A stretch of 64,000 nucleotides of DNA from Phyllobates terribilis (taxonomy: Eukaryota). This document shows positions 24,001-64,000 of the stretch, piece by piece. The notes beneath the pieces are model-generated. The model made no database searches and was not told the origin of the DNA. It worked only from the letters and a program-made list of their open reading frames with translations. Position 1 is the stretch's first letter; each line of letters begins with the position of its first letter. The position numbers and the translations under genes are program-made. Where the stretch lies: assembly GCF_046119375.1 (NCBI RefSeq), contig NW_027362772.1, positions 320,230,001-320,294,000 of the forward strand, in the 5' to 3' direction.

Positions 24001-27000
24001 TGTAAGGTCAGACGCTGAACCCGGGGCCCAGGGACACTGCACCGCTGTAAGGTCAGACGCTGAACCCGGGGCCCAGGGAAAGTCTGCACCGCTGTAAGGT
24101 CAGATGCTGAACCCGGGGCCCAGGGACACTGCACCGCTGTAAGGACAGACGCTGAACCCGGGGCCCAGGGACACTGTACCGCTGTAAGGTCAGACGCTGA
24201 ACCCGGGGCCCAGGGAGGGACACTGCACCACTGTAAGGTCAGACGCTGAACTCGGGTCCCAGGGACACTGCACCGCTGTAAGGTCAGATGCTGAACCCGG
24301 GACCCAGGGACACTGCACCACTGTAAGGACAGACGCTGAACCCGGGGCCCAGGGACACTGCACCGCTGTAAGGTCAGACGCTGAACCCGGGGCCCAGGGA
24401 CACTGCACCGCTGTAAGGTCAGACGCTGAACTCGGGTCCCAGGGACACTGCACCGCTGTAAGGTCAGATGCTGAACCCGGGACCCAGGGACACTGCACCA
24501 CTGTAAGGACAGACGCTGAACCCGGGGCCCAGGGACACTGCACCGCTGTAAGGTCAGACGCTGAACCCGGGGCCCAGGGACACTGCACCGCTGTAAGGTC
24601 AGACGCTGAACCCGGGGCCCAGGGACACTGCACCGCTGTAAGGTCAGACGCTGAACCCGGGGCCCAGGGACACTGCACCGCTGTAAGGTCAGACGCTGAA
24701 CCCGGGGCCCAGGGACACTGCACCGCTGTAAGGTCAGACGCTGAACCCAGGACCCAGGGACACTGCACCGCTGTAAGGTCAGACACTGAACCCGGGGCCC
24801 AGGGACACTGCACCGCTGTAAGGTCAGACGCTGAACCCGGGGCCCAGGGACACTGCACCGCTGTAAGGTCAGACTCTGAACCCGGGGCCCAGGGACACTG
24901 CACCGCTGTAAGGTCAGATGCTGAACCCGGGGCCCAGGGACACTGCACCGCTGTAAGGTCAGATGCTGAACCCGGGGCCCAGGGACACTGCACCACTGTA
25001 AGGACAGACGCTGAACCCGGGTCCCAGGGACACTGCACCGCTGTAAAGTCAGACGCTGAACCCAGGGCCCAGGGAGGGACACTGCACCACTGTAAGGACA
25101 GACGCTGAACCCGGGTCCCAGGGACACTGCACCGCTGTAAGGTCAGACGCTGAACCCGAGGCCCAGGGACAGTGCACCGCTGTAAGGTCAGACGCTGAAC
25201 CCGAGGCCCAGGGACACTGCACCGCTGTAAGGTCAGACGCTGAACCCGGGGCCCAGGGACACTGCACCGCTGTAAGGTCAGGCGCTGAACCCGGGGCCCA
25301 GGGACACCGCACCGCTGTAAGGTCAGACGCTGAACCCGGGGCCCAGGGACACTGCACCGCTGTAAGGTCAGACGCTGAACCCGGGGCCCAGGGACACTGC
25401 ACCGCTGTAAGGTCAGATGCTGAACCCGGGGCCCAGGGACACTGCACCGCTGTAAGGACAGACGCTGAACCCGGGACCCAGGGACACTGCACCGCTGTAA
25501 GGTCAGATGCTGAACCCGGGGCCCAGGGACACTGCACCGCTGTAAGGTCAGACGCTGAACCCGGGGCCCAGGGAGGGACACTGCACCACTGTAAGGACAG
25601 ACGCTGAACCCGGGTCCCAGGGACACAGCACCGCTGTAAGGTCAGATGCTGAACCCGGGGCCCAGGGACACTGCACCACTGTAAGGTCAGACGCTGAACC
25701 CGGGGCCCAGGGACAGTGCACCGCTGTAAGGTCATACGCTGAACCCGGGGCCCAGGGACACTGCACCGCTGTAAGGTCAGACGCTGAAGCCGGGGCCCAG
25801 GGACACTGCACCGCTGTAAGGACAGACGCTGAAGCCGGGTCCCAGGGACACTGCACCGCTGTAAGGTCAGATGCTGAACCCGGGGCCCAGGGACACTGCA
25901 CCACTGTAAGGACAGACGCTGAACCCGGGGCCCAGGGACACTGCACCACTGTAAGGACAGACGCTGAACCCGGGTCCCAGGGACACTGCACCGCTGTAAG
26001 GTCAGATGCTGAACCCGGGGCCCAGGGACACTGCACCGCTGTAAGGTCAGATGCTGAACCCGGGGCCCAGGGACACTGCACCACTGTAAGGACAGACGCT
26101 GAACCCGGGGCCCAGGGACACTGCACCACTGTAAGGACAGACGCTGAACCCGGGTCCCAGGGACACTGCACCGCTGTAAGGTCAGATGCTGAACCCGGGG
26201 CCCAGGGACACTGCACCGCTGTAAGGTCAGATGCTGAACCCAGGGCCCAGGGACACTGCACCGCTGTAAGGTCAGACGCTGAACCCAGGACCCAGGGACA
26301 CTGCACCGCTGTAAGGTCAGATGCTGAACCCGGGGCCCAGGGACACTGCACCGCTGTTAGGTCAGACGCTAAACCCGGGGCCCAGGGACACTGCACCGCT
26401 GTTAGGTCAGACGCTGAACCCGGGGCCCAGGGACACTGCACCGCTGTAAGGTCAGATGCTGAACCCGGGGCCCAGGGACACTGCACCGCTGTTAGGTCAG
26501 ACGCTGAACCCGGGGCCCAGGGACACTGCACCGCTGTTAGGTCAGACGCTGAACCCGGGGCCCAGGGACACTGCACCGCTGTAAGGTCAGATGCTGAACC
26601 CGGGGCCCAGGGACACTGCACCGCTGTAAGGTCAGACGCTGAACCCAGGACCCAGGGACACTGCACCGCTGTAAGGTCAGACGCTGAACCCGGGGCCCAG
26701 GGACACTGCACCGCTGTAAGTTCAGACGCTGAACCCGGGGCCCAGGGACACTGCACCGCTGTAAGGTCAGACGCTGAACCCGGGACCCAGGGACACTGCA
26801 CCGCTGTAAGGTCAGACGCTGAACCCAGGGCCCAGGGAGGGACACTGCACCACTGTAAGGACAGACGCTGAACCCGGGTCCCAGGGACACTGCACCGCTG
26901 TAAGTTCAGACGCTGAACCCGAGGCCCAGGAACACTGCACCGCTGTAAGGTCAGACGCTGAACCCGGGGCCCAGAGACACTGCACCGCTGTAAGGTCAGA

Positions 27001-42000: not shown

Positions 42001-43755
42001 TGTAAGGTCAGACGCTGAACCCGGGGCCCAGGGACACCGCACCGCTGTAAGGTCAGGCGCTGAACCCAAGGCCCAGGGACACTGCACCGCTGTAAGGTCA
42101 GACGCTGAACCCAAGGCCCAGGGACACTGCACAGCTGTAAGGTCAGACGCTGAACCCGGGGCCCAGGGACACTACACCACTGTAAGGTCAGACGCTGAAC
42201 CCGGGACCCAGGGACACTGCACCGCTGTAAGGACAGACGCTGAACCCGGGACCCAGGGACACTACACCGCTGTAAGGTCAGACGGTGAACCCGGGGCCCA
42301 GGGACTCTGCACCGCTGTAAGGTCAGACGCTGAACCCGGGGCCCAGGGACACTGCACCGCTGTAAGGTCAGACGCTGAACCTGGGGCCCAGGGACACTAC
42401 ACCGCTGTAAGGTCAGACGGTGAACCCGGGGCCCAGGGACTCTGCACCGCTGTAAGGTCAGACGCTGAACCCGGGGCCCAGGGACACTGCACCGCTGTAA
42501 GGTCAGACTCTGAACCCGGGACCCAGGGACACTGCACCACTGTAAGGTCAGACGCTGAACCCGGGACCCAGGGACACTGCACAGCTGTAAGGTCAGACGC
42601 TGAACCCGGGGCCCAGGTACACTGCACCACTGTAAGGTCAGACGCTGAACCCGGGGCCCAGGGACACTGCACCACTGTAAGGTCAGACGCTGAACCCAGG
42701 GCCCAGGGACACTGCACCACTGTAAGGTCAGACGCTGAACCCGGGGCCCAGGGACACTGCACCGCTGTAAGGTCAGACGCTGAACCCGGGGCCCAGGGAC
42801 ACTGCACCACTGTAAGGTCAGACTCTGAACCCGGGACCCAGGGACACAGCACCACTGTAAGGTCAGACGCTGAACCCGGGACCCAGGGACACAGCACCAC
42901 TGTAAGGTCAGACTCTGAACCCGGGGCCCAGGGACACTGCACCACTGTAAGGTCAGACTCTGAACCCGGGACCCAGGGACACTGCACCGCTGTAAGGTCA
43001 GACGCTGAACCCGGGGCCCAGGGACACTGCACCGCTGTAAGGTCAGACGCTGAACCCAGGACCCAGGGACACTGCACCGCTGTAAGGTCAGACGCTGAAC
43101 CCGGGGCCCAGGGACACTGCACCGCTGTAAGGTCAGACGCTGAACCCGGGGCCCAGGGACACTGCACCGCTGTAAGGTCAGACTCTGAACCCGGGTCCCA
43201 GGGACACTGCACCGCTGTAAGGTCAGACGCTGAACCCGGGGCCCAGGGACACCGCACCGCTGTAAGGTCAGACGCTGAACCCGGGACCCAGGGACACTGC
43301 ACCGCTGTAAGGTCAGACGCTGAACCCGGGGCCCAGGGACACTGCACCGCTGTAAGGTCAGACGCTGAACCCGGGGCCCAGGGACACTGCACCGCTGTAA
43401 GGTCAGACTCTGAACCCGGGTCCCAGGGACACTGCACCCCTGTAAGGTCAGATGCTGAACCCGGGGCCCAGGGACACTGCACCGCTGTAAGGTCAGACGC
43501 TGAACCCAGGGCCCAGGGACACTGCACCGCTGTAAGGTCAGACGCTGAACCCGGGGCCTAGGGACACTGCACCACTGTAAGGTCAGATGCTGAACCCGGG
43601 GCCCAGGGACACCGCACCGCTGTAAGGCCAGACGCTGAACCCGGGGCCCAGGGACACCGCACCGCTGTAAGGTCAGACGCTGAACCCGGGGCCCAGGGAC
43701 ACCGCACCGCTGTAAGGTCAGACGCTGAACCCGGGGCCCAGGGACACTGCACCGC
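1..43755. repeat. 45-bp GC-rich tandem satellite, about 970 units; left end lies outside the window
   Basis: Consensus GAACCCGGGGCCCAGGGACACTGCACCGCTGTAAGGTCAGACGCT (15 G, 15 C, 10 A, 5 T) is repeated head-to-tail with point variants and occasional 46- and 49-bp units. The last intact partial unit ends at gggacactgcaccgc (43755). Confidence 0.99.
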
Positions 43756-45297
43756 GGGATCGAGGGACACCACCAGAATAATACATCTAATGGGCTCACT
43801 CCATGAATCTGGAGGTAATTACTACCAGTCCTACACCGACTGCTCCACTGGGAACGGCGGATCTCATGGCCACCACTGCACGAGGAGTGGAAAGCCGCTG
43901 GATAAACTGGGATGAGGTCAGAGCTGCCGGCCAAAATGTGGCGCTCTGCTGCTTCAGCCGTGTGGGAAATGGTGCTGGCAACTTACATAGTTTTTCAAAT
44001 TCCAAATTTAATCTAAAAATGTTAAAATTTGCACAGAATTTTAGGAAATTCGATTTGAACTTGAAAATGCAAAGTAATTTATATGTCCAGGAAATTTCCA
44101 AACAAAACTGAGAAGATCTGGTCACTCGGGCTGAGTCTCAGGCGACAGTCACTACTGCAGCCCTTAGATTATTAGATAATGGAGTTTACTTCAGTTGGCA
44201 TCGTACTCCTTCCACTGCCTCTCTCAACATTGGTAGTGGAGGACTGAGTGGGTATTACTTCTTGCACTACGTCTCTTGGGGTTGATAGCAGAGACATAGT
44301 GAGTGGGTGTGAGAGTATTATTTCTTGTGGTCATTAGCTGAGTAGTGAGTGGGAGTATTATTCCTTGTGGTCATTAGCTGAGTAGTGAGTGGGTGTATTA
44401 TTCCATGTGGTCATTAGCTGAGTAGTGAGTGGGTGTGAGTATTATTCCATGTGGTCATTAGCTGAGTAGTGAGTGGGTGTATTATTCCTTGTGGTCATTA
44501 GCTGAGTAGTGAGTGGGTGTGAGTATTATTCCTTGTGGTCATTAGCTGAGTAGTGAGTGGGTGTGAGTATTATTCCTTGTGGTCATCAGAAGAGTAGTGA
44601 GTGGATGTATTATTCTGTGTGTTCATTAGCTGATTAGTGAGTGGGTGTGAGTATTATTCCTTGTGGTCATTACCTGAGTAGTGAGTGGGTTTGAGTATTA
44701 TTCCTTGTGCTCATTAGCTGAGTAGTGAGTGGGTGTATTATTTCTTGTGGTCATTAGCTGAGTAATGAGTGGGTGTGAGTATTATTCCTTGTGGTCATTA
44801 GCTGAGTAGTGAGTATTATTGCTTGTGGTCATCAGCATAGTAGTGAGTATTATTTCCTGTGGTCATCAGCAGAATAGTGAGTGGGTGTGAGTATTATTTA
44901 TTGTGGTCATTAGCTGAGTAGTGAGTGTATTATTTGTTGTGGTCATTAGTTGAATAGTGAGTGGGAGTGAGTATTCCTTGTGAACAATAATAGATTTCTT
45001 AAAGGAGAAAAAATGTGCCGCTATCTAATCGTCGTAAGATTTGATCAATTAAATGGGTAAGTATCTCTAGGAAATTGCTCACCTGATGTGGTTGTGCAAA
45101 CAGAGGCACAACTCCCACTTGTAGTATGGATGAATTTGCAAAAGACTGCAAGCTACCTGGTGAGGTAGGATTGAACCCTGAGACAGGAGTATCCCACAAC
45201 GAAGATGCGAAAAGGGAGAACCAGGTGACGGCACTGTATTTGCCACCAAGTGAGATCAAGGTGCAGGAACTTCAGGTTGCTTGTAAGTAAAAAATAT

Positions 45298-45303
45298 TTT
45301 ATT
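45298..45303 (-). terminator. Polyadenylation signal AATAAA downstream of the hammerhead (repeated in each unit)
   Basis: Plus-strand tttatt, about 35 nt 3' of the predicted cleavage site. The context is AT-rich, so chance occurrence is possible. Confidence 0.45.
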
Positions 45304-45332
45304 CACACCAATATAAAACAAATAAAAAGTGT

Positions 45333-45376
45333 ATACACAACGCGTTTCGGCTGTTTGTAGCCTTCTTCAGATGTAT
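45333..45376 (-). ncRNA. Minimal type I hammerhead ribozyme, copy 1
   Basis: RNA AUACAU CUGAAGA A GGCU ACAAAC AGCC GAAA C GC G U U GUGUAU. It has core CUGANGA and GAAA, a 4-bp stem II, a 2-bp stem III within palindromic ACGCGU, and a 6-bp stem I (one G-U). The NUH site is GUU, with the predicted cut between 45339 and 45338. Confidence 0.88.
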
Positions 45377-45398
45377 GGAAAAAATGAATTTGACCCTT

Positions 45399-45406
45399 CT
45401 TTTATA
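45399..45406 (-). promoter_or_regulatory. TATA box TATAAAAG upstream of the hammerhead (repeated at +1465, +2930, +4395)
   Basis: Plus-strand cttttata; its first T lies 30 nt upstream of the 5' end of stem I. Confidence 0.55.
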
Positions 45407-46447
45407 GCCCATTGCCATAGTGAGAGAGGGAAGGGTTATATATTTTTTTATTATTCCTTGTGGTCATTAGCTGAGTAGTGAGTGGGTGAAAGTATTATTC
45501 CTTGTGGTCATTAGCTGAGTAGTGAGTGGGTGTGAGTATTATTCCTTGTGGTTATTAGCTGAGTAGTGAGTGGGTGTATTATCCCTTGTGGTCATTAGCA
45601 GAGTAGTGAGTGGGAGTATTATTTCTTGTGGTCATTAGCTGAGTAGTGAGTGGGTGTATTATTTCTTGTGGTCAGTAGCTGAGTAGTGAGTGGGAGTATT
45701 ATTTTTTGTGACCATTAGCTGAGTAGTGAGTGGGAGTATTATTTCTTGTGGTCATTTGCTGAGTAGTGAGTGGGTGTATTATTTCTTGTGGTTATTAGCT
45801 GAGTAGTGAGTGGGTGTATTATTCCTTGTGGTCATTAGCTGAGTAGTGAGTGGGAGTATTATTTCTTGTGGTCATTAGCTGAGTAGTGAGTGGGAGTATT
45901 ATTCCTTGTGGTCATTAGCTGAGTAGTGAGTGGGTGTGAGTATTATTCCTTGTGGTCATTAGCTGAGTAGTGAGTGGGTGTGAGTATTATTCCTTGTGGT
46001 CATTAGTTGAGTTGTGAGTGGGTGTGAGTATTATTCCTTGTGGTCATTACCTGAGTAGTGAGTGGGTTTGAGTATTATTCCTTGTGGTCATTAGCTGAGT
46101 AGTGAGTGGGTGTGAGTATTATTCCTTGTGGTCATTACCTGAGTAGTGAGTGGGTTTGAGTATTATTCCTTGTGGTCATTAGCTGAGTAGTGAGTGGGTG
46201 TATTATTTCTTGTGGTCATTAGCTGAGTAATGAGTGGGTGTGAGTATTATTCCTTGTGGTCATTAGCTGAGTAGTGAGTATTATTGCTTGTGGTCATCAG
46301 CATAGTAGTGAGTATTATTTCCTGTGGTCATCAGCAGAATAGTGAGTGGGTGTGAGTATTATTTATTGTGGTCATTAGCTGAGTAGTGAGTGTATTATTT
46401 GTTGTGGTCATTAGTTGAATAGTGAGTGGGAGTGAGTATTCCTTGTG

Positions 46448-46913
46448 AACAATAATAGATTTCTTAAAGGAGAAAAAATGTGCCGCTATCTAATCGTCGT
46501 AAGATTTGATCAATTAAATGGGTAAGTATCTCTAGGAAATTGCTCACCTGATGTGGTTGTGCAAACAGAGGCACAACTCCCACTTGTAGTATGGATGAAT
46601 TTGCAAAAGACTGCAAGCTACCTGGTGAGGTAGGATTGAACCCTGAGACAGGAGTATCCCACAACGAAGATGCGAAAAGGGAGAACCAGGTGACGGCACT
46701 GTATTTGCCACCAAGTGAGATCAAGGTGCAGGAACTTCAGGTTGCTTGTAAGTAAAAAATATTTTATTCACACCAATATAAAACAAATAAAAAGTGTATA
46801 CACAACGCGTTTCGGCTGTTTGTAGCCTTCTTCAGATGTATGGAAAAAATGAATTTGACCCTTCTTTTATAGCCCATTGCCATAGTGAGAGAGGGAAGGG
46901 TTATATATTTTTT
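46448..46913 (-). mobile_element. Penelope-like pseudo-LTR fragment, copy 2
   Basis: Appears identical to copy 1 at +1,465. Confidence 0.75.
46798..46841 (-). ncRNA. Minimal type I hammerhead ribozyme, copy 2
   Basis: Same 44 nt as copy 1; predicted cut 46804/46803. Confidence 0.88.
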
Positions 46914-47912
46914 TATTATTCCTTGTGGTCATTAGCTGAGTAGTGAGTGGGTGAAAGTATTATTCCTTGTGGTCATTAGCTGAGTAGTGAGTGGGTGTGA
47001 GTATTATTCCTTGTGGTTATTAGCTGAGTAGTGAGTGGGTGTATTATCCCTTGTGGTCATTAGCAGAGTAGTGAGTGGGAGTATTATTTCTTGTGGTCAT
47101 TAGCTGAGTAGTGAGTGTGTGTATTATTTCTTGTGGTCAGTAGCTGAGTAGTGAGTGGGAGTATTATTTTTTGTGACCATTAGCTGAGTAGTGAGTGGGA
47201 GTATTATTTCTTGTGGTCATTAGCTGAGTAGTGAGTGGGTGTATTATTTCTTGTGGTTATTAGCTGAGTAGTGAGTGGGTGTATTATTCCTTGTGGTCAT
47301 TAGCTGAGTAGTGAGTGGGAGTATTATTTCTTGTGGTCATTAGCTGAGTAGTGAGTGGGAGTATTATTCCTTGTGGTCATTAGCTGAGTAGTGAGTGGGT
47401 GTGAGTATTATTCCTTGTGGTCATTAGCTGAGTAGTGAGTGGGTGTGAGTATTATTCCTTGTGGTCATTAGTTGAGTAGTGAGTGGGTGTGAGTATTATT
47501 CCTTGTGGTCATTACTTGAGTAGTGAGTGGGTTTGAGTATTATTCCTTGTGGTCATTAGCTGAGTAGTGAGTGGGTGTGAGTATTATTCCTTGTGGTCAT
47601 TACCTGAGTAGTGAGTGGGTTTGAGTATTATTCCTTGTGGTCATTAGCTGAGTAGTGAGTGGGTGTATTATTTCTTGTGGTCATTAGCTGAGTAATGAGT
47701 GGGTGTGAGTATTATTCCTTGTGGTCATTAGCTGAGTAGTGAGTATTATTGCTTGTGGTCATCAGCATAGTAGTGAGTATTATTTCCTGTGGTCATCAGC
47801 AGAATAGTGAGTGGGTGTGAGTATTATTTATTGTGGTCATTAGCTGAGTAGTGAGTGTATTATTTGTTGTGGTCATTAGTTGAATAGTGAGTGGGAGTGA
47901 GTATTCCTTGTG

Positions 47913-48378
47913 AACAATAATAGATTTCTTAAAGGAGAAAAAATGTGCCGCTATCTAATCGTCGTAAGATTTGATCAATTAAATGGGTAAGTATCTCTAG
48001 GAAATTGCTCACCTGATGTGGTTGTGCAAACAGAGGCACAACTCCCACTTGTAGTATGGATGAATTTGCAAAAGACTGCAAGCTACCTGGTGAGGTAGGA
48101 TTGAACCCTGAGACAGGAGTATCCCACAACGAAGATGCGAAAAGGGAGAACCAGGTGACGGCACTGTATTTGCCACCAAGTGAGATCAAGGTGCAGGAAC
48201 TTCAGGTTGCTTGTAAGTAAAAAATATTTTATTCACACCAATATAAAACAAATAAAAAGTGTATACACAACGCGTTTCGGCTGTTTGTAGCCTTCTTCAG
48301 ATGTATGGAAAAAATGAATTTGACCCTTCTTTTATAGCCCATTGCCATAGTGAGAGAGGGAAGGGTTATATATTTTTT
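47913..48378 (-). mobile_element. Penelope-like pseudo-LTR fragment, copy 3
   Basis: Appears identical to copy 1 at +2,930. Confidence 0.75.
48263..48306 (-). ncRNA. Minimal type I hammerhead ribozyme, copy 3
   Basis: Same 44 nt as copy 1; predicted cut 48269/48268. Confidence 0.88.
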
Positions 48379-49377
48379 TATTATTCCTTGTGGTCATTAG
48401 CTGAGTAGTGAGTGGGTGAAAGTATTATTCCTTGTGGTCATTAGCTGAGTAGTGAGTGGGTGTGAGTATTATTCCTTGTGGTTATTAGCTGAGTAGTGAG
48501 TGGGTGTATTATCCCTTGTGGTCATTAGCAGAGTAGTGAGTGGGAGTATTATTTCTTGTGGTCATTAGCTGAGTAGTGAGTGTGTGTATTATTTCTTGTG
48601 GTCAGTAGCTGAGTAGTGAGTGGGAGTATTATTTTTTGTGACCATTAGCTGAGTAGTGAGTGGGAGTATTATTTCTTGTGGTCATTAGCTGAGTAGTGAG
48701 TGGGTGTATTATTTCTTGTGGTTATTAGCTGAGTAGTGAGTGGGTGTATTATTCCTTGTGGTCATTAGCTGAGTAGTGAGTGGGAGTATTATTTCTTGTG
48801 GTCATTAGCTGAGTAGTGAGTGGGAGTATTATTCCTTGTGGTCATTAGCTGAGTAGTGAGTGGGTGTGAGTATTATTCCTTGTGGTCATTAGCTGAGTAG
48901 TGAGTGGGTGTGAGTATTATTCCTTGTGGTCATTAGTTGAGTAGTGAGTGGGTGTGAGTATTATTCCTTGTGGTCATTACTTGAGTAGTGAGTGGGTTTG
49001 AGTATTATTCCTTGTGGTCATTAGCTGAGTAGTGAGTGGGTGTGAGTATTATTCCTTGTGGTCATTACCTGAGTAGTGAGTGGGTTTGAGTATTATTCCT
49101 TGTGGTCATTAGCTGAGTAGTGAGTGGGTGTATTATTTCTTGTGGTCATTAGCTGAGTAATGAGTGGGTGTGAGTATTATTCCTTGTGGTCATTAGCTGA
49201 GTAGTGAGTATTATTGCTTGTGGTCATCAGCATAGTAGTGAGTATTATTTCCTGTGGTCATCAGCAGAATAGTGAGTGGGTGTGAGTATTATTTATTGTG
49301 GTCATTAGCTGAGTAGTGAGTGTATTATTTGTTGTGGTCATTAGTTGAATAGTGAGTGGGAGTGAGTATTCCTTGTG

Positions 49378-49843
49378 AACAATAATAGATTTCTTAAAGG
49401 AGAAAAAATGTGCCGCTATCTAAGCGTCGTAAGATTTGATCAATTAAATGGGTAAGTATCTCTAGGAAATTGCTCACCTGATGTGGTTGTGCAAACAGAG
49501 GCACAACTCCCACTTGTAGTATGGATGAATTTGCAAAAGACTGCAAGCTACCTGGTGAGGTAGGATTGAACCCTGAGACAGGAGTATTCCACAACGAAGA
49601 TGCGAAAAGGGAGAACCAGGTGACGGCACTGTATTTGCCACCAAGTGAGATCAAGGTGCAGGAACTTCAGGTTGCTTGTAAGTAAAAAATATTTTATTCA
49701 CACCAATATAAAACAAATAAAAAGTGTATACACAACGCGTTTCGGCTGTTTGTAGCCTTCTTCAGATGTATGGAAAAAATGAATTTGACCCTTCTTTTAT
49801 AGCCCATTGACATAGTGAGAGAGGGAAGGGTTATATATTTTTT
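49378..49843 (-). mobile_element. Penelope-like pseudo-LTR fragment, copy 4
   Basis: Matches copy 1 at +4,395 with three substitutions seen (ctaatc>ctaagc, gtatccc>gtattcc, attgcc>attgac), none inside the ribozyme. Confidence 0.75.
49728..49771 (-). ncRNA. Minimal type I hammerhead ribozyme, copy 4
   Basis: Same 44 nt as copy 1; predicted cut 49734/49733. Confidence 0.88.
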
Positions 49844-51634
49844 TATTATTCCTTGTGGTCATTAGCTGAGTAGTGAGTGGGTGAAAGTATTATTCCTTGT
49901 GGTCATTAGCTGAGTAGTGAGTGGGTGTGAGTATTATTCCTTGTGGTTATTAGCTGAGTAGTGAGTGGGTGTATTATCCCTTGTGGTCATTAGCAGAGTA
50001 GTGAGTGGGAGTATTATTTCTTGTGGTCATTAGCTGAGTAGTGAGTGGGTGTATTATTTCTTGTGGTCAGAAGCTGAGTAGTGAGTGGGAGTATTATTTC
50101 TTGTGGTCATTAGCTGAGTAGTGAGTGGGAGTATTATTTCTTGTGGTCATTAGCTGAGTAGTGAGTGGGTGTATTATTTCTTGTGGTTATTAGCTGAGTA
50201 GTGAGTGGGTGTATTATTCCTTGTGGTCATTAGCTGAGTAGTGAGTGGGAGTATTATTTCTTGTGGTCATTAGCTGAGTAGTGAGTGGGAGTATTATTCC
50301 TTGTGGTCATTAGCTGAGTAGTGAGTGGGTGTGAGTATTATTCCTTGTGGTCATTAGCTGAGTAGTGAGTGGGTGTGAGTACTATTCCTTGTGGTCATTA
50401 GTTGAGTAGTGAGTGGGTGTGAGTATTATTCCTTGTGGTCATTAGCTGAGTAGTGGGTGGGTGTGAGTATTATTTCTTGTGGTTATTAGCTGAGTAGTGA
50501 GTGGGTGTGAGTATTATTCCTTGTGGTCATTAGTTGAGTAGTGAGTGGGTGTGAGTATTATTCCTTGTGGTCATTAGCTGCGTAGTGAGTGGGTGTATTA
50601 TTTCTTGTGGTTATTAGCTGAGTAGTGGGTGTATTATTCCTTGTGGTCATTAGCTGAGTAGTGAGTGGGAGTATTATTTCTTGTGGTCATTAGCTGAGTA
50701 GTGAGTGGGAGTATTATTCCTTGTGGTCATTAGCTGAGTAGTGAGTGGGTGTGAGTATTATTCCTTGTGGTCATTAGCTGAGTAGTGAGTGAGTGGGTGT
50801 ATTATTTCTTGTGGTCATTAGCTGAGTAGTGAGTGGGTGTGAGTATTATTTCTTGTGGTCATTAGCTGAGTAGTGAGTGGGAGTATTATTCCTTGTGGTC
50901 ATTAGCTGAGTAGTGAGTGAGTGGGAGTATTATTTCTTGTGGTCATTAGCTGAGTAGTGAGTGGGTGTGAGTATTATTTCTTGTGGTCATTAGCTGAGTA
51001 GTGAGTGGGTGTGAGTATTATTTCTTGTGGTCATTAGCTGAGTAGTGGGTGGGTGTGATACACAGTTTGTGAGGATGTTCTTGAATTTCCCTGATGCCTT
51101 TAGAAGATTCTGGTCTTGAATTTCCACACTTGTGTATCCTACTTTATTCCTGGATTACTTTCTCATCCCCAGGGCGCGGCCTACACATCTTTGGGACGTA
51201 TAATTTATTCCATTCTCTTGCGTTGAAGGTTGGGTTCCTACTTCCATAGTGTCAGAAAGACAAATGTGCCTTTTATAGGTTGCTCGTCAATGTTTCACTT
51301 TTTTTCCACGTTTTGTTTTTATTTATAATAGAAATGAAATAAGGAAAAATGTGTTCAGATAAAAAAGTGGAGCACATGGTGCCGAACAGAGGCTGGATCA
51401 GCAGCAGGAAGGGGAGGCGAGCTGTGATTTCAGTTTCATGGGAGTAGAAGACCTGATAAAAATCAGGCCACATTTTTCTGTACACTGAAGCTCCCTGAGC
51501 TGATGCTCTCTGGTGTCAGCTCCCACTAATCCTCTAATAAGTCATTAGACACTGAATGTCTGAAGTCTCTTGATCCCACAATGTTTGTAAAGGACAAAAG
51601 TGAAATGTGACTCAGAAAAGAGATGGTAGAAGCA

Positions 51635-52231: not shown

Positions 52232-55200
52232 GGGGGCTGCGGTGACCATAGAGTATGGGGGGGGACTGCGGTGACCATAGAGTATGGGGGGGACTGCGGT
52301 GACCATAGAGTATGGGGAGGGGACTGCGGTGACCATAGAGTATGGGGGGGACTGCGGTGACCATAGAGTATGGGGGGCCGCGGTGACCATAGTGCATGGG
52401 GGGGACTGCGGTGATCATAGTGCATGGGGGGGACTGCGGTGCCCATAGTGCATGGGGGGGACTGCAGTGACCATAGTGCATGGGGAGGACTGCGGTGACC
52501 ATAGTGCATGGGGAGACTGCAGTGACCATAGTGCATGGGGGGGACTGCAGTGACCATAGTGCATGGGGAGGACTGCAGTGACCATAGTGCATGGGGGGGA
52601 CTGCAGTGACCATAGTGCATGGGGGGGACCGCAGTGACCATAGTGCATGGGGGGACCGCAGTGACCATAGTGCATGGGGAGGACTGCGGTGACCATAGTG
52701 CATGGGGAGGACTGCAGTGACCATAGTGCATGGGGGGGACTGCAGTGACCATAGTGCATGGGGGGGACTGCGGTGACCATAGTGCATGGGGGGGACTGCG
52801 GTGACCATAGTGCATGGGGGGGACTGCGGTGACCATAGTGCATGGGGAGGACTGCGGTGACCATAGTGCATGGGGGGACTGCGGTGACCATAGTGCATGG
52901 GGGGACTGCGGTGACCATAGTGCATGGGGGGACTGCGGTGACCATAGTGCATGGGGGGGACTGCAGTGACCATAGTGCATGGGGGGGACTGCAGTGACCA
53001 TAGTGCATGGGGGGACTGCGGTGACCATAGTGCATGGGGGGGACTGCAGTGACATAGTGCATGGGGGGACTGCGGTGACCATAGTGCATGGGGGGGACTG
53101 CGGTGACCATAGTGCATGGGGGGGACTGCGGTGACCATAGTGCATGGGGGGGACTGCGGTGACCATAGTGCATGGGGGGGACTGCGGTGACAATAGTGCA
53201 TGGGGGGGACTGCGGTGACCATAGTGCATGGGGGGACTGCGGTGACCATAGTGCATGGGGAGGACTGCGGTGACCATAGTGCATGGGGAGGACTGCGGTG
53301 ACCATAGTGCATGGGGAGGACTGCGGTGACCATAGTGCATGGGGAGGACTGCGGTGACCATAGTGCATGGGGAGGACTGCGGTGACCATAGTGCATGGGG
53401 AGGACTGCGGTGACCATAGTGCATGGGGAGGACTGCGGGACCATAGTGCATGGGGAGGACTGCGGTGACCATAGTGCATGGGGGGGACTGCGGTGACCAT
53501 AGTGCATGGGGGGACTGCGGTGACCATAGTGCATGGGGGGGACTGCGGTGACCATAGTGCATGGGGAGGACTGCAGTGACCATAGTGCATGGGGGGACTG
53601 CAGTGGACCATAGTGCATGGGGGGGACTGCGGTGACCATAGTGCATGGGGGGGACTGCGGTGACCATAGTGCATGGGGGGGACTGCGGTGACCATAGTGC
53701 ATGGGGGGACTGCGGTGACCATAGTGCATGGGGGGGACTGCGGTGACCATAGTGCATGGGGGAGGACTGCGGTGACCATAGTGCATGGGGGGACTGCGGT
53801 GACCATAGTGCATGGGGGGACTGCAGTGACCATAGTGCATGGGGGGGACTGCGGTGACCATAGTGCATGGGGGGGACTGCAGTGACCATAGTGCATGGGG
53901 GGGACTGCGGTGACCATAGTGCATGGGGGGGACTGCAGTGACCATAGTGCATGGGGGGACTGCGGTGACCATAGTGCATGGGGGGGACTGCGGTGACCAT
54001 AGTGCATGGGGGGGACTGCGGTGACCATAGTGCATGGGGGGGACTGCGGTGACCATAGTGCATGGGGGGGACTGCGGTGACCATAGTGCATGGGGGGACT
54101 GCGGTGACCATAGTGCATGGGGGGGACTGCGGTAACAATAGTGCATGGGGGGACCTGCGGTGACAATAGTGCATGGGGGGGACTGCGGTGACCATAGTGC
54201 ATGGGGGGACTGCGGTGACCATAGTGCATGGGGGGGACTGCGGTGACCATAGTGCATGGGGGGGACTGCGGTGACCATAGGGCATGGGGAGGACTGCGGT
54301 GACCATAGTGCATGGGGAGGACTGCGGTGACCATAGTGCATGGGGAGGACTGCGGTGACCATAGTGCATGGGGAGGACTGCGGTGACCATAGTGCATGGG
54401 GAGGACTGCGGTGACCATAGTGCATGGGGAGGACTGCGGTGACCATAGTGCATGGGAGGACTGCGGTGACCATAGTGCATGGGGGGGACTGCGGTGACCA
54501 TAGTGCATGGGGGGACTGCGGTGACCATAGTGCATGGGGGGGACTGCGGTGACCATAGTGCATGGGGGGACTGCGGTGACCATAGTGCATGGGGGGGACT
54601 GCGGTGACCATAGTGCATGGGGGGGACTGCGGTGACCATAGTGCATGGGGGGACTGCGGTGACCATAGTGCATGGGGGGGACTGCGGTGACCATAGTGCA
54701 TGGGGGGACTGCGGTGACATAGTGCATGGGGGGACTGCGGTGACCATAGTGCATGGGGGGGACTGCGGTGACCATAGTGCATGGGGGGGACTGCGGTGAC
54801 CATAGTGCATGGGGGGGACTGCGGTGACCATAGTGCATGGGGGGACTGCGGTGACCATAGTGCATGGGGGGGCTGCGGTGACCATAGTGCATGGGGGGGC
54901 TGCGGTGACCATAGTGCATGGGGGGGCTGCGGTGACCATAGTGCATGGGGGGGCTGCGGTGACCATAGTGCATGGGGGGGCTGCGGTGACCATAGTGCAT
55001 GGGGGGGGGACTGCAGTGACCATAGTGCATGGGGGGGGACTGCAGTGACCATAGTGCATGGGGGGGGGACTGCAGTGACCATAGTGCATGGGGGGGTGCT
55101 GCAGTGACCATAGTGCATGGGGGGGGGACTGCAGTGACCATAGTGCATGGGGAGGACTGCGGTGACCATAGTGCATGGGGGGGGACTGCAGTGACCATAG

Positions 55201-55884
55201 TGCATGGGGGGGGGACTGCAGTGACCATAGTGCATGGGGGGGGACTGCAGTGACCATAGTGCATGGGGGGGACTGCAGTGACCATAGTGCATGGGAGGAC
55301 TGCGGTGACCATAGTGCATGGGGAGGACTGCGGTGACCATAGTGCATGGGGGGGGGACTGCGGTGACCATAGTGCATGGGGGGGGGACTGCGGTGACCAT
55401 AGTGCATGGGGGGGGACTGCGGTGACCATAGTGCATGGGGGGGACTGCGGTGACCATAGTGCATGGGGAGGACTGCGGTGACCATAGTGCATGGGGAGGA
55501 CTGCGGTGACCATAGTGCATGGGGAGGACTGCAGTGACCATAGTGCATGGGGGGACTGCGGTGATCATAGTGGCATGGGGGGACTGCGGTGATCATAGTG
55601 CATGGGGGGACTGCGGTGACCATAGTGCATGGGGAGACTGCGGTGACCATAGTGCATGGGGAGGACTGCGGTGACCATAGTGCATGGGGGGGGACTGCGG
55701 TGACCATAGTGCATGGGGGGGGACTGCGGTGACCATAGTGCATGGGGGGGACTGCGGTGACCATAGTGCATGGGGGGGACTGCGGTGACCATAGTGCATG
55801 GGGGGGTGCTGCGGTGACCATAGTGCATGGGGGGGGGGGCGGCGCGGGTGACCATAGTGCTTGGGGGGGCCGCGGTGACCATAG
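52232..55884. repeat. 27-31-bp G-run minisatellite, about 130 units
   Basis: Core ACTGCGGTGACCATAGTGCAT followed by a G6-G10 run or GGGGAGG. The first few units carry GAGTAT instead of GTGCAT. Confidence 0.98.
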
Positions 55885-56347: not shown

Positions 56348-56447
56348 NNNNNNNNNNNNNNNNNNNNNNNNNNNNNNNNNNNNNNNNNNNNNNNNNNNNN
56401 NNNNNNNNNNNNNNNNNNNNNNNNNNNNNNNNNNNNNNNNNNNNNNN
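56348..56447. other. Assembly gap (100 N)
   Basis: A run of exactly 100 N, a typical scaffolding placeholder. The true distance and contiguity across it are unknown. Confidence 0.99.
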
Positions 56448-56827: not shown

Positions 56828-57750
56828 TCGCCGCTAGGTTCAGATAGGGCGAGACGGGCTTCATGAATTCTTTGGAATCCTGGGGGAACCGTTACTCAGG
56901 GCGACCATAGGGAGCAGCTTCTCTCAGGCACACGATAGATTCAGTTGCTGACCAGACACATCTGACAAGAGTCTTTTTCATCAGTTTAACAGTGGAATTA
57001 ATCTGAAGCACGGCCAGTGCAATTCAGGGATATTACAGCCACAATCTTCATTACAGTACAGTCTGACTTTTTTGAGCAACCGGCTCCAGTAATAATACAG
57101 TAGTTTTTTCACAAGACACAGTATTACAGTCTCTTCAGTAGCATAATTCAGCATAGATTAGATCTCTTAGCAGCACACTTCTATGAATACACAACCACAG
57201 GCTTTTCCTTCACAAGGACACATTCATACACAGCATTCTTTATCCTGCATGGAGATGGAGGAGGGGAGGGTTTGAGGGAGATGATCCCTATGGCGGGATT
57301 CCTTCCAGTCTTTATCTTCCTGCCTGATAGACTCCCTGAGCTAACAGTGCAGAGTATTATCTGACCTGTGTTTTGCTTCCCTCCTGACCTGAATTCTATT
57401 CACTTGCATTCTGTGAGATACAGAACACACACACCACCTTTCTCTTCGACTCCAGCCAGACAGTAAACTACTTCCCCACAATCCCCCTGGGGCTCAGCTA
57501 AAACACTCCCCTTCTCCTGTGATTGTGTTAACCCCTCTAGTTGTTGGATGCTTCCGGAGCACAACACTTCCTGTCTCCTGTGCTTGTGTTACTTCTAATA
57601 GTTGCTGGATGCTTTTAAAGCAACAGCACTTCTTCTGCATGTCACAAGTACTAGAATCTAGTTTAGCCAGGAACTGTCCAGCGAGCAGAATAGCTCAGTG
57701 GGAAGAGCTGCAGCCTGGTGCACAAAAGCTGCTGGGTTTGAGTCCTCACA
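56818..57750 (-). mobile_element. 3' LTR of a degraded Gypsy chromovirus; right edge firm, left edge tentative
   Basis: The minus strand reads PPT GGAAGGAGGGGA (57766-57755), then CTAC, then TGTGAGG at 57750, directly after the chromodomain. The left end is guessed at the T(G/A)TTACAC junction. Confidence 0.55.
57684..57750 (+). other. tRNA-derived Pol III type 2 promoter module at the LTR terminus (not a functional tRNA)
   Basis: A box TAGCTCAGTGG (57691-57701), D-arm GCTC/GAGC and B box GGTTTGAGTCC (57735-57745), with the tRNA-like 44-nt A-to-B offset. The anticodon arm and acceptor stem do not fold. Confidence 0.65.
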
Positions 57751-58452
57751 GTAGTCCCCTCCTTCCAGAATGGCCTCTGGACATCTTAGGCACTGGTTTC
57801 TCTGGATGTCTCTGATGAAAGTCTCTTGTAAGCCTGGGTGCATGGACATTGTACTTCGGTTCGTATGAATTATCTTCTGGTCCGTAACCCTTCCATTGCA
57901 CCAAATGTTGCAATCTTCCTCTAAATCTTCTGGAGTCCAGAATTTTATCCACGATGTACTGTTCTCCATCATGGACTATTTCTGGTGGAGGAGGTGGCTG
58001 AGTTTGTCCTGGAAACGGGTTTTACTGAGTGGTTTGAGCGAGGATACTTGGACACAGGGTGAATTTTCAGGCTGTTAGGAAATTTTAATTTGTGCAGAAA
58101 TATGAAAAGGTCCTATGAATTTTTGACCCAATTTTGATGACGGTTCGTTTGTTTTCAGGTCCTACCTGAAGGGTAGGAGCGGCTTTGCGATGTTTATCTG
58201 CTACTTCTTTATAATCTTCTTGGACCTTCTGTAGCAGCTCAATTAGTTCTTTCTGAGTTTCCTGCAACTTTGTCAGTAACAGCTGGAACCGAAGTATTAC
58301 ATGGAAGATTAGGAATAAATACTGGGTGCAAGCCATAATGAGCAAAAAATGCACTTTGGGATGTAGAACTGTGTTTGGAGTTATTGTAGGGAAACCCCCA
58401 GTAAGAGATAAAACAGCGCAGGTATTGTTGGAGAGTTTGGTTAGTTCTTTCT
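57751..58452 (-). pseudogene. pol: Degraded Gypsy (chromovirus) pol 3' end: integrase C-terminus and chromodomain
   Basis: Frameshifted pieces ERTNQTLQQYLRCF...PYNNSKHSST...[44 protein letters not shown] and [31 protein letters not shown]; internal deletions are present. Confidence 0.9.
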
Positions 58453-58949: not shown

Positions 58950-59278
58950 CTGGCCACTGTACTAATGACAAAGTTATAAGGAGCTGGAAGGTCCTTAAAA
59001 ATGATTACAGGGAACTAGGAGAGAAGCTGAAAGCCAGGACCTCCAAGGTGGTGTTTTCAGAAATACTGATGGTGCCACGAGCGTCACTAGATAGACAGCG
59101 GGAGATTAGGGACATAAATAAGTGGTGCAGGAAGGAAGGGTTTGGGTTCATGGAGAACTGGGCCGACTTCTCTGTCGGCAACAGGCTCTACGGGATGTAT
59201 GGGCTGCACCTCAATGGGGAGGGTGCAGCTGTGCTGGGGGAAAAAATGGTCAGACGGATGGAGGAGCTTTTAAACTAG
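58950..59278 (+). pseudogene. CR1 LINE ORF1 remnant (SGNH/GDSL esterase domain)
   Basis: TNDKV...LKNDYRELGEKLKARTSKVVFSEIL...REIRDINKW...EGFGFMENWADF...GLHLNGEGAAVLGEKM, matching the CR1 ORF1 esterase blocks (GxND and DGLHL, degenerate here). Confidence 0.85.
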
Positions 59279-59429
59279 GATCTGGGGGGAGGGAGGGTAT
59301 TCATGCTAATAAGGGGATAGATAGAGTAGACAGAGAGAGTGGGACAGCAGGGGTTATATAGTATCTAGGGGGACTGGGATATGCAAGGAAAGTAGGAAGC
59401 TGAGTAGTAGTAACAAATGTGCTAATAGT

Positions 59430-60695
59430 ATTAAATATCTGCTGGTGAATGCAAGAAGTCTCGCAAACAAAATGGCTGAACTGGAGACTCTTATGTCGGT
59501 CACAGAATACGATGTGGTGGGTATTACGGAAACTTGGCTGGATGAAAGCCAAGACTGGGTGATAAACATGGAGGGACACACTACATTTAGAAAGGACAGG
59601 GAAGACCAAAAATGTGGAGGGGTGTGTATTCTCGTAAGATGCATCTTAAAACCTGTGCTCAATGACAACATTGGGGGGCGCTGCGACAATGTAGAGTCAG
59701 TCTGGTAAATGTACATGGGGATGGCCATAATGGAAAGCTGCTAATTGGAGTTTGTTACAAGACTCCTAATATAGAGGAACAGGTAGAGGACGAAATGCTG
59801 CAACAAATAAAAAAGGCAGCAAATAATAATAATAATAGGGTCCTTATATGGGGGATGGTAACTATCCAGATATTCAATGGGACATAGAAGCTTCCAATTG
59901 TGCTAAAAGCTGCAAGTTCTTATCCACAGTTCAGGACAATGACCTCTTTCAGCTGTAGATGAACCGATGAGGGGAGGCAATCGGCAACAGCATCGGGCAA
60001 TCTGCAACAGCATCGGGCAATCGGCAACAGCATCGGGCAATCGGCAACAGCATCGGGCAATCTGCAACAGCATCGGGCAATCGGCAACAGCATCGGGCAA
60101 TCTGCTGGATCTGGCGCTGTCACATAGACCAGATACAATCTCCGATCTACAGGTCCAGGAGCGTCTGGGAACCCGTGACCATAATATGGGAAGTTTCAAT
60201 GTAATATTCAATAAAATATTTCAAAAAGGAAATGCAAAAACCTGGAACTTTAGGAAAACTGATCTCAACAAATTATGGGAAGAACTTAATGGTGTAGACT
60301 GGGACCAGGTCATGGTAACTGGGCATAACTAACATTAATGGGGCAATGTTCAAGGAAATACTACTAGAATCCTATAGAAAATGTATACCCTTTGGTAATA
60401 AAATGTCCAGGAATAAAAATAAACCACTATGGATAAATAAGACAAAAACAACGGGCCGAGAATACAGAAATAACACTTCAGGAGTATAAAAATCTAAATG
60501 GGAAACGTAAAAAAGAAATCATACTACAAAGTTATCTATAGAGCAACAAATCGCCAGCAACATTAAAATAAATCCCAAAAAATGTTATAAATACATCAAT
60601 GTCAAAAAAACAAAAAAAAACAGATGGCATCGGCCCCTTAAAAAAGGATAACAACAAGATAATTATAGAGGACAAAGAAAAGGCTGAGATATTAA
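59430..60695 (+). pseudogene. CR1 LINE ORF2 remnant: APE endonuclease and linker, interrupted before RT
   Basis: NARSLANKM, YDVVGITETWLDES, FRKDR...GGV, VESVW, IGVCYK, GNYPDI, NLLDL, GTRDHNM, NFRKTD, KPLWINK and KEKAEIL(N). Contains stops and frameshifts and ends at TTAA 60692-60695. Confidence 0.9.
59976..60105. repeat. 20-bp tandem repeat (6.5 copies) inside the CR1 endonuclease
   Basis: GGCAATC(G/T)GCAACAGCATCG x6, followed by the native GGCAATCTGC. Confidence 0.95.
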
Positions 60696-62230: not shown

Positions 62231-63308
62231 TGTAACGGGTCTGGGAGGCGGAACCTCTGAGCAACTATACAAGGGGGCGGTCCTTGTAAGGAAGCGGGTG
62301 GCTCCCAGGGAAGACAGGCAAGTAATCACGGCAAGTGACAGGGACAGTCTCTGGGTAGAAGGGCAGGTAGTCACGGCAAGTGACAGGGACAGTCTCTGGG
62401 TAGAAGGGCAGGTAGTCACGGCAAGTGACAGGGACAGTCTCTGGGTAGAAGGGCAGGTAGTCACGGCAAGTGACAGGGACAGTCTCTGGGTAGAAGGACG
62501 GGTACTCACGGCAAGTGACAGGGACAGTCTCTGGACAGGCAGGTGGTCACGGCTAGTGACGGCAGAGCCTCCAGGTAGGCTAGCAGGCAGGTAGCAGGTG
62601 AGCGCTCCTAGGCGAGCAGGCGAGAGTCTCTGGACAGGCAGGTGGTCACAGCAAGTGACGGCGGAGCCTCCAGGTAGGCTAGCAGGCAGGTAGCAGATGA
62701 GCGCTCCCAGGTGAGCAGACAGGAGTCTCTGGACAGGCAGGTGGTCACTGCAAGTGACGGTGGAGCCTCCAGGTAGGCTAGCAGGCAGGTAGCAGACGAG
62801 CGCTCCCAGGTGAGCGGGCAGGCTGGTCCATAGACAGACTGACAGGTGTCGGAAGGCAGACCGTCGGACCGCAGGCTTGCATGCAGGTAAACGGATATCT
62901 GGCAGGTATCCAGCAGGAATCTGGCAGGTGACTGGCAGGTAACAGGCAGGAATCTGGCAGGTGAATGGCAGGTAACAGGCATGAATCTGTCAGGTGACTG
63001 GCAGGTAACTGGAAACAGGACCTGAGGGCTGAAGCAGAGTGAAGGCTTTGCAACAACATTGCTCGGGCACCTCCATTTTGGAGGAGGTGCCTTATATATG
63101 GTGAAGTCCTCCGGCCATTGGCCGGGGACTCCTTAGGACGGCGCGCGCGGCCCCTTTAAGAGAGGGGGAGCGCGCGCGCGCCCTAAGCACCGTGGCTGGG
63201 AAGCAGCGCGCGCTGACAGCAGAGCGGGAGGAAGATGCCGGGCACAGAGCGGAGAGGTCAGGGGAACAGCGTCCCTGCCTAGCAGGAGGCAGGGACGCCG
63301 ACGCTACA
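62231..63308 (-). mobile_element. 3' LTR (1,078 bp) of a Gypsy chromovirus
   Basis: The minus strand starts TGTAGCG (63308) right after PPT-TAC and ends CGTTACA (62231), an inverted terminal match of 6/7. TATATAAG at 63091-63098 is followed by a 9-bp hairpin GGCACCTCC/GGAGGTGCC (63066-63091). Confidence 0.88.
62327..63010. repeat. LTR-internal tandem repeats: 45 bp x ~4.5, 99 bp x ~3, 33 bp x ~3
   Basis: CACGGCAAGTGACAGGGACAGTCTCTGGGTAGAAGGGCAGGTAGT from 62327; GGACAGGCAGGTGGTCAC recurs at 62533, 62632 and 62731; GCAGGAATCTGGCAGGTGACTGGCAGGTAACAG from about 62913. Confidence 0.92.
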
Positions 63309-64000
63309 GTACCCCCCCCCTTTAGGCCCCCCCTTTTTTAGGCCAGAGAGAAATTTATCAAGGATGAGAGGGGCATGGATGTTCTCCCGGGGCTCCCACG
63401 TTCTCTCCTCAGGACCAAACCCCTTCCAATCTACCAGAAAAAAGGTTTTTCCTCTTACCCTTTTGGTGGCCAGAATGTTCTCTACCTCAAACTCGTTCTC
63501 AGCGGAAACCGGAGCAGGAGGCGTACCTGTAGACTTGGAAAAAGAGTTAAGTACCACGGGTTTGAGGAGAGATACATGGAAGGAGTTAGGGATCCGTAAG
63601 TTGGCCGGGAGTTTTAATTTATAGGCCACCGGGTTGATCTGTTTGATAACTTCCAGTGGGCCGATGAACCGAGGCCCTAACTTGTAGGAGGGAATCTTGA
63701 GCCAGACTTTATCTCCAGGACGGAATTGTGGAGGATCCAGGCTTTTCTTGTCAGCGTGTTTTTTCATCCGTTCGGACGACTGAAGGAGTGCGGATCGGGT
63801 ACTCTCCCAAATGGAGGAGAATTCGCGAACGAGAGATTCCGCAGCCGGATTGTCCACCGAGGTGGAGACGGGAAATGGGATCCGAGGATGCTGACCGAAG
63901 ACTACAAAAAACGGGGATTTGGAGGAAGATTCGCTCTCGTGATTATTGTAAGAGAACTCGGCCCATGGTAGGAGATCCACCCAGTCCGAATGGTGGGCAT
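63279..64000 (-). CDS. pol: Gypsy chromovirus pol, partial: integrase C-terminus, GPY/F motif and chromodomain; frame open to the window edge
   Basis: AHHSDWVDLLPWAEFSYNN...SPFFVVFGQHP...FRPGDKVWL...KLGPRFIGP...INPVAYKLKLP...FHVSLLKP...EFEVENIL...FLVDWKGFGPEERTWEPRENIHAP. No stops; the frame ends inside the LTR. Confidence 0.92.
   Translation of the reverse strand, partial: AHHSDWVDLLPWAEFSYNNHESESSSKSPFFVVFGQHPRIPFPVSTSVDNPAAESLVREFSSIWESTRSALLQSSERMKKHADKKSLDPPQFRPGDKVWLKIPSYKLGPRFIGPLEVIKQINPVAYKLKLPANLRIPNSFHVSLLKPVVLNSFSKSTGTPPAPVSAENEFEVENILATKRVRGKTFFLVDWKGFGPEERTWEPRENIHAPLILDKFLSGLKKGGPKGGGYCSVGVPASC
63312..63323 (-). other. Polypurine tract of the Gypsy element
   Basis: Minus-strand AAAGGGGGGGGG, 3 nt before the LTR TG. 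Confidence 0.85.

Follow-up and report, generated by a model that had tools for sequence, protein, structure and literature searches.

Penelope-like elements (PLEs) carry minimal type I hammerhead ribozymes, which are described as combining the conserved core with an extra base, a G10.1-C11.1 pair and a palindromic stretch at positions 15.2-16.2 (Cervera and de la Pena 2014; PMC4209133). According to the same source and to PMC6765202 they cleave weakly even as dimers or trimers, and the report of Li, Clavereau and Pollet (2026; bioRxiv 10.64898/2026.07.22.740005) describes a single cleaving dimer among nine from Xenopus assayed in vitro. The latter report also cites a general model of satellite birth, in which a transposon fragment is amplified by unequal crossover within a variable number tandem repeat (VNTR). 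Here we analyse a 64,000-nucleotide stretch of Phyllobates terribilis DNA (assembly GCF_046119375.1, contig NW_027362772.1, positions 320,230,001 to 320,294,000, forward strand; hereafter the window), in which four such hammerheads stand in register in a tandem array. We consider it very probable that the array is the 5'-truncated end of one old PLE, lodged in a minisatellite specific to this locus and quadrupled in place by unequal crossing-over, and that, as a passive DNA repeat, it neither moves nor processes itself efficiently as RNA.

Positions 44297 to 51056 of the window make up the array. The extent of 45333 to 49771 given in an earlier note on this DNA is correct for the span of the hammerheads, but the array itself is longer. 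Its order is M0-U1-M1-U2-M2-U3-M3-U4-M4, where M denotes arms of a 40/44-bp minisatellite, as found with Tandem Repeats Finder (TRF), and U a 456-bp segment in minus orientation. The copies of U lie at 44983-45438, 46448-46903, 47913-48368 and 49378-49833; genome search and arm comparison show the first three to be identical, and the fourth has private substitutions at 49424, 49588 and 49810. Between them sit three inner arms, M1 (45449-46447), M2 (46914-47912, with four substitutions relative to M1) and M3 (48379-49377, identical to M2), and on the outside are the original left and right arms of the minisatellite, M0 (44297-44982) and M4 (49844-51056). Minisatellite accounts for 995 of the 1,465 nt of each unit (68%; 40% A and 32% C on the minus strand), which bears out the earlier description of the unit as two-thirds C/A-rich minisatellite. 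The three full units differ by only 4, 6 and 2 substitutions (0.14-0.41%).

The arms record how the copies arose. With one letter for each variant of the minisatellite unit (b stands for two units), M0 reads ABCDEEFGHIJKLMN and M4 reads OEPQbWRVWAEcZdeZfgWAEhiAjii; M1 reads OEPQRSTUVWAEEXHEHRJKLMN, and M2 and M3 both read OEPQYSTRVWAEEZaEHRJKLMN. Every inner arm consists of the start of M4 joined to the end of M0. Judged from these codes, the chimeric arms would be the product expected of mispairing between two arms flanking one insertion. Both outer arms reach beyond the 1,465-bp period. Aligned in register, the inner arms start to match M0 near 44635 and gradually lose their match to M4 after 50445, limits which place the exchange near 46050-46100 in M1. 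The variants, furthermore, are nested rather than star-like: three changes are private to U4, and the identical M2 and M3 share changes that M1 does not have. Such nesting appears to fit successive exchanges better than the insertion of a single concatemer.

Three features of the unit are confined to this one locus. The junction between minisatellite and U has four occurrences in the genome (28 nt, one mismatch allowed), all in the array; the same is true of all 47 exact matches to a 29-nt minisatellite word and of all four copies of the variant hammerhead retrieved by pattern search. The unmutated family hammerhead has nine genome copies, on six other contigs. The 1,465-bp unit therefore bears no sign of having moved, and the dispersed single monomers envisaged in the earlier note did not appear in these searches.

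U itself belongs to a dispersed family. In a genome DNA search with U, 40 of 476 candidates were scored and 26 dispersed loci fetched; the four array copies rank first and the remaining scored copies are 86-92% identical, most of them 86-91%, with the best match outside the array at 91%. Across the dispersed loci the shared sequence ends within about 12 nt of one 3' point, with the exception of locus L010, where it continues into the element, and the 5' sides vary through truncation or inversion. Ten long loci, picked for extended upstream homology, have in common a broken open reading frame (ORF), and in eight of them there is an inverted piece of the pseudo-long terminal repeat (pLTR), ending at U position 212-246. 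The family ORF matches the GIY-YIG domain above the Pfam cut-off (E=1.8e-5) and the reverse transcriptase (RT) domain RVT_1 below it (E=2.9e-4 and 3.7e-6). In the long loci and in L084 the RT is followed by a C-terminal GIY-YIG, the domain order of endonuclease-bearing (EN+) PLEs, whose structural traits of 5' truncation, pLTR and inverted upstream copy are also seen. Since in L084 the entire U runs straight into the ORF, U is a partial pLTR plus some 225 nt from the 5' region of the element, and comparison with the common 3' end of its dispersed relatives marks U1 as a 5'-truncated PLE end. No convincing target-site duplication was found in the 24 of the 26 dispersed copies that could be anchored.

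In natural frames, the family has a CX4CxxC linker before the endonuclease (CFLKKCCCC) and a CCHH motif (C-x-C, H...H). A CX2-5CxxC linker and CCHH are described as marks of Neptune, both shared by Nematis (Craig et al. 2021; PMC8557442); on its motifs, the parent family would be of Neptune or Nematis type, and likely Neptune. Past the pLTR, loci L005-L040 of the family continue at the 3' end for about 225 nt, the inverted 5' copies stopping at U 212-246 and the 3' ends clustering at U 464-475, in a sample for which the query favoured long-tail copies; the published extension is 30-40 bp (PMC8557442). Five of the 26 dispersed copies (L005, L007, L010, L017 and L025) start directly after one transposon-like terminal sequence plus TA, which could reflect either TA targeting or a composite element. 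The upstream frame of L084 is a putative Tc1/mariner transposase.

The insertion and the array differ greatly in age. Measured against the letter most often seen among the 26 copies, U has changes at 33 of 453 positions (7.3%) and the individual copies at 2.4-7.5%. Set against the divergence between units, this means that the insertion is much older than the array. The hammerhead has fared no differently from its surroundings: 4 of the 33 changes fall in its 50-nt stretch, the same rate as in the remainder of U, and two of them weaken stems. Across the family its conservation (0.945) is no better than that of the flanks (0.968, 0.929 and 0.956). The core is kept in 21 of the 26 dispersed copies and core plus palindrome in nine; eight copies are equal to or better than the array hammerhead and four are perfect. 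The rate of change, the family conservation, the equal-or-better copies and the unmutated ones elsewhere all point to an absence of selection on the ribozyme.

To locate the motif, both strands were scanned from position 43700 as far as the end of the window; the result agrees with the earlier note in finding four identical minus-strand copies with a complete core: ATACAT-CTGAAGA-A-GGCTACAAACAGCC-GAAA-CGCG-TT-GTGTAT. This parses as stem I (ATACAT), core CTGAAGA, the extra A, stem II (GGCT/AGCC), GAAA, CGCG, U16.1, U17 and the other strand of stem I (GTGTAT). The copies occupy 45333-45376, 46798-46841, 48263-48306 and 49728-49771, all four also being recovered in the genome pattern search, with C3 at 45370, 46835, 48300 and 49765 and a spacing of exactly 1,465 nt. 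All 13 core nucleotides are present (CUGANGA, GAAA, UH), as are the unpaired A between 9 and 10.1, the G10.1-C11.1 pair and the palindromic 15.2-16.2 (ACGCGU). The hammerhead-bearing sequence, moreover, precedes the ORF in L084 and is found at the 3' ends and inverted 5' ends of the long copies, that is, in the pLTR. Because the PLE feature list is matched and the location is the pLTR of a PLE family, we regard the four minus-strand minimal type I hammerheads as confirmed, beyond chance. By sequence and position the motif is the PLE minimal hammerhead, the class to which the earlier note had assigned it.

Its claim of foldable stems, however, was overstated. Two changes are specific to the array hammerhead: that at 45371 turns pair 1.1-2.1, next to the cut, into a G-U wobble, and that at 45358 leaves an A-C mismatch at the fifth stem II pair. 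The predicted cut follows GUU, between 45339 and 45338 (+1465n), and the three monomers proposed previously, 49733-48269, 48268-46804 and 46803-45339, match the predicted positions. Rfam covariance models, through which the hammerheads were to be checked, gave no match at gathering score over the whole window and, at E<=10 on 44900-45500, three weak unrelated matches, none of them a hammerhead. We take this silence to mean that minimal PLE hammerheads fall outside the models, and do not count it against the motif. In every unit a TATA-like box (TATAAAA; 45400-45406, +1465n, minus strand), a putative promoter, lies 30 nt upstream of hammerhead stem I, and it is found in most family copies in the 26-copy alignment. 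An AATAAA at 45298-45303 was dropped as a conserved signal, being within a variable A/T tract.

Folding predictions, which are rough at long range, suggest that these hammerheads would seldom adopt the active form. The minimum-energy co-fold of two isolated motifs does contain the double-hammerhead helices, and lies 8.3 kcal/mol below two monomers. In a modelled 1,901-nt transcript with natural flanks, neighbouring palindromes pair with a probability of about 0.62-0.64; both active sites together would cost 7.7 kcal/mol, and the active stem I has a probability of 0.003-0.005, an active fold of about 0.5%, as the core is taken up by pairing with a U-tract upstream. The active dimer is predicted at -18.9 kcal/mol compared with -28.0 in unmutated family copies, some 9 kcal/mol weaker, and the active fold with the upstream tract would cost 14.4 kcal/mol as against 5.0-7.4 in the four perfect copies. 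A transcript beginning 30 nt past the TATA-like box would be free of the U-tract, as modelled on short stretches only. The predicted circle is 37% paired and, at -176 kcal/mol, no more stable than eight mononucleotide shuffles (-162 to -186). Two values were set aside: an outer stem I probability of about 0.15 in a first dimer fold was an edge effect, revealed by adding 200-nt flanks, and a value for L024 whose active fold fell below the minimum was an artefact of forced non-canonical pairs.

The events leading to the array may be pictured as follows. Its raw material is the pLTR and tail of the dispersed RT and GIY-YIG family, a piece of which would have been inserted into the minisatellite, decayed neutrally to 7.3% and gained the two stem-weakening hammerhead changes. 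The left arm would then have mispaired with the right arm, a crossover about 370 bp before U creating the 1,465-bp unit, and further unequal exchanges would have produced copies 3 and 4. A read-through RNA is predicted to cleave poorly or not at all. At the insertion there is microhomology of 4 nt between U1 and the minisatellite (44979-44982), and the 5' truncation junction bears a 10-nt A/T filler (45439-45448), minisatellite sequence beginning again at 45449; copies of an 11-bp word stand on both sides of U, but the target itself is repeated, so that its reading as a duplication is ambiguous. The unamplified starting arrangement is seen elsewhere, in L027 (oriented 1124-3453, with a 29-bp repeat on both sides) and L085 (a 52-bp repeat on both sides), which show family copies inside unrelated minisatellites. 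A Pfam scan of 62 of the 101 listed open frames and of four PLE frames found no host gene or source of read-through, although short exons would escape it; the matches were to LTR-retrotransposon domains and two spurious ones only.

Several observations nevertheless weigh against a wholly passive repeat. The array hammerhead has lost neither its core nor its CpG-rich palindrome, whereas both are kept in only nine of the 26 dispersed copies, and each unit retains the putative TATA-like box. In ViennaRNA models neighbouring palindromes pair across the 1.4-kb spacer with a probability of about 0.62-0.66 and one active hammerhead lies only 3.6-4.4 kcal/mol above the minimum, so that cleavage would be physically possible. 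The pattern searches were exact or near-exact and would let a dispersed monomer with several changes escape, and the DNA search scored just 40 of its 476 candidates. Finally, contig depths, discussed below, leave the four-copy count unconfirmed. The features of the hammerhead, with the co-fold of isolated motifs and the route from pLTR to retrozyme proposed by Li et al. (bioRxiv 10.64898/2026.07.22.740005), lend themselves to the idea of an accidental proto-retrozyme: of the same DNA origin, but with the pLTR promoter driving a minus-strand RNA from which palindrome-paired hammerheads release linear or circular 1,465-nt monomers. We think this unlikely in view of the U-tract pairing with the core and the rarity of active stem I with natural flanks, the weaker dimer, the costlier active fold, a circle whose energy falls inside the range of its shuffles and the eight of nine Xenopus dimers described as inactive in vitro. 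Nor is selection needed for the intact core and palindrome, since both would survive neutral decay to 7.3% with a probability of about 0.28. That the array is a retrozyme caught at birth seems a shade less probable again; on this view the crossover gave a silent pLTR hammerhead the neighbours it needs to dimerize and a TATA box of its own, and the unstructured C/A-rich spacer allows adjacent hammerheads to pair and to set free RNAs of 1,465 nt, two-thirds of each being host minisatellite. Equally small is the chance that this feature of ordinary origin is by accident a self-processing RNA.

Still less probable is an over-expansion, in the assembly, of one or two true copies. The identity of U1-U3 and of M2 and M3 would suit it, as would the tandem-repeat-rich region with its gap at 56348-56447. 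Of 22 sequencing runs listed, none is recorded as RNA; four (X1, X2, X3 and X12) were compared, as unstranded contigs. X1 has two contigs over 45029, with 0 and 1 difference, and this pair would fit the substitution, T or G, that separates copies 1-3 from copy 4; their depths are equal (6.68 and 6.64) rather than 3:1 as in the assembly, although depth is not copy number. On the other side, all three full units can be told apart and share variants in a nested fashion, and the chimeric inner arms hold unit variants absent from both outer arms. X1 and X2, DNA runs belonging to separate studies (one possibly the assembly's own sample), also have contigs that match the junction between minisatellite and U letter for letter; the insertion is therefore real, the copy number not being addressed by this result. 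A joint in X2 that skips 477 (44971 to 45449) was rejected as an empty-site allele, its depth being equal to that of the junction contig (10.6) and minisatellite self-similarity explaining it. X3, of unknown kind, gave one 183-nt contig identical to 45017-45192 at depth 4, and X12, for which RNA is only a guess, a minisatellite piece with two differences and four short PLE pieces; both are without strand and too slight to demonstrate expression, and were unused as evidence. Least credible, and largely refuted, is a mobile 1,465-nt retrozyme, reverse-transcribed from circular RNA and inserted as a ready-made concatemer. Head-to-tail units with one hammerhead each do correspond to the operational definition of Li et al., and PLE machinery is described as able to move unrelated cargo between pLTRs (PMC3846280). 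Yet near-exact searches for the junction, the minisatellite and the variant hammerhead lead only to the array, leaving no source or sister copy; the minisatellite continues past both array ends, the inner arms are chimeras of the flanks and the unit variants are nested. The retrozyme-like or satellite-2-like self-processing unit of the earlier note thus fares poorly, with no dispersed monomer found, boundaries inside the minisatellite arms and a poorly paired circle. Passive tandem amplification of a PLE remnant, which that note offered as the simpler alternative, is favoured by the chimeric arms, the single locus and the gap in age.

The array is 3.85 Mb from the end of its 324.12-Mb contig, at 320.27 Mb, in a 10.57-Gb genome, and other long tandem repeats surround it (TRF). 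A 45-bp GC-rich repeat with 94% unit identity occupies window 1-43755 and L055 1-10000, at least 53.7 kb; its unit has stop-free frames, which give open stretches of up to 1,905 codons (18380-24094, plus strand) that are probably mechanical. Downstream of the array, 131 copies of a 28-bp G-rich repeat (52232-55884) are followed by a 100-N assembly gap (56348-56447). Remains of chromodomain-bearing Ty3/gypsy elements lie at 57749-58021 and 63282-63998 (minus strand) and in L056 1-3572, with Pfam matches to chromo, SH3, integrase, RNase H, RT and gag domains. A degraded stretch at about 58970-60690 (plus strand), split by a 20-bp tandem repeat at 59976-60102, has no Pfam match; from its motif, we take it to resemble the endonuclease region of a CR1-type long interspersed nuclear element. 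Further repeats, one with a 17-bp unit containing CCCTAA and two distinct 31-bp repeats (L056 4570-4713 and 6707-8347; L057 4534-10000), suit a repeat-rich region close to the contig end. A literature search found no description of the locus, but transposon fragments in minisatellites were not targeted, so we make no claim that the arrangement is unreported; the retrozyme tables supplementing bioRxiv 10.64898/2026.07.22.740005 may list relatives.

How, then, does the array compare with described systems? As set out in PMC4209133 and PMC8557442, the pLTR hammerheads of EN+ PLEs agree with it in core, extra base between 9 and 10.1, G10.1-C11.1 pair and palindromic helix III, and the elements themselves agree with its parent family in pLTR position, an ORF of RT and C-terminal GIY-YIG, 5' truncation, inverted pLTR, CX4CxxC linker and CCHH motif. 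The array copy differs in being a decayed solo end amplified together with host minisatellite, and the family in its far longer 3' extension. With non-LTR retrozymes, as described in PMC7229834 and bioRxiv 10.64898/2026.07.22.740005, it shares head-to-tail, non-coding, pLTR-derived units, each with a complete type I hammerhead, and a position near a chromosome end; by the operational rule of Li et al. its four units, at -8.5 kcal/mol, would count as a retrozyme. We do not file it as one because of its unit size, its apparent immobility and its circle structure. The unit is 1,465 bp, compared with 150-450 bp (PMC7229834) or 51-972 bp (bioRxiv 10.64898/2026.07.22.740005, in a search limited to period 1,000); the array is at a single locus, with no dispersed monomers found in near-exact searches, and its hammerhead is minimal rather than canonical. 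Retrozyme circles are described as highly self-paired (PMC7229834), unlike the circle predicted here, and a DNA-level crossover origin can be read directly from the arms. Abundant linear and circular monomer RNAs are a further mark of retrozymes. Should the array nevertheless prove to undergo transcription and cleavage, the route from PLE end to retrozyme could be tested at a single, dated locus, as could the ability of minimal hammerheads to dimerize across 1.4 kb; a retrozyme at birth would have a unit larger than the animal retrozyme units in the literature compared.

Satellite 2 of newt and axolotl, compared by description only (PMC7229834), is similar in its tandem type I hammerheads and in a weak, palindromic helix III for which dimerization would be required. 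Its units are about 330-350 bp, with 126,247 motifs in axolotl, abundant transcripts and loop 1-loop 2 contacts; a single-locus array of 1,465-bp units with minimal hammerheads does not belong with this high-copy, canonical family. Another relative is the VNTR model of satellite birth, with which the array shares its flanking homologous arms, chimeric inner arms and stepwise nested variants, differing in that the passenger includes a ribozyme motif and a TATA-like box. Most likely, the array neatly illustrates how one pLTR hammerhead can become a tandem hammerhead array with no RNA step, and as such it counsels caution in surveys where every tandem run of complete hammerheads is scored as an 'active retrozyme'.

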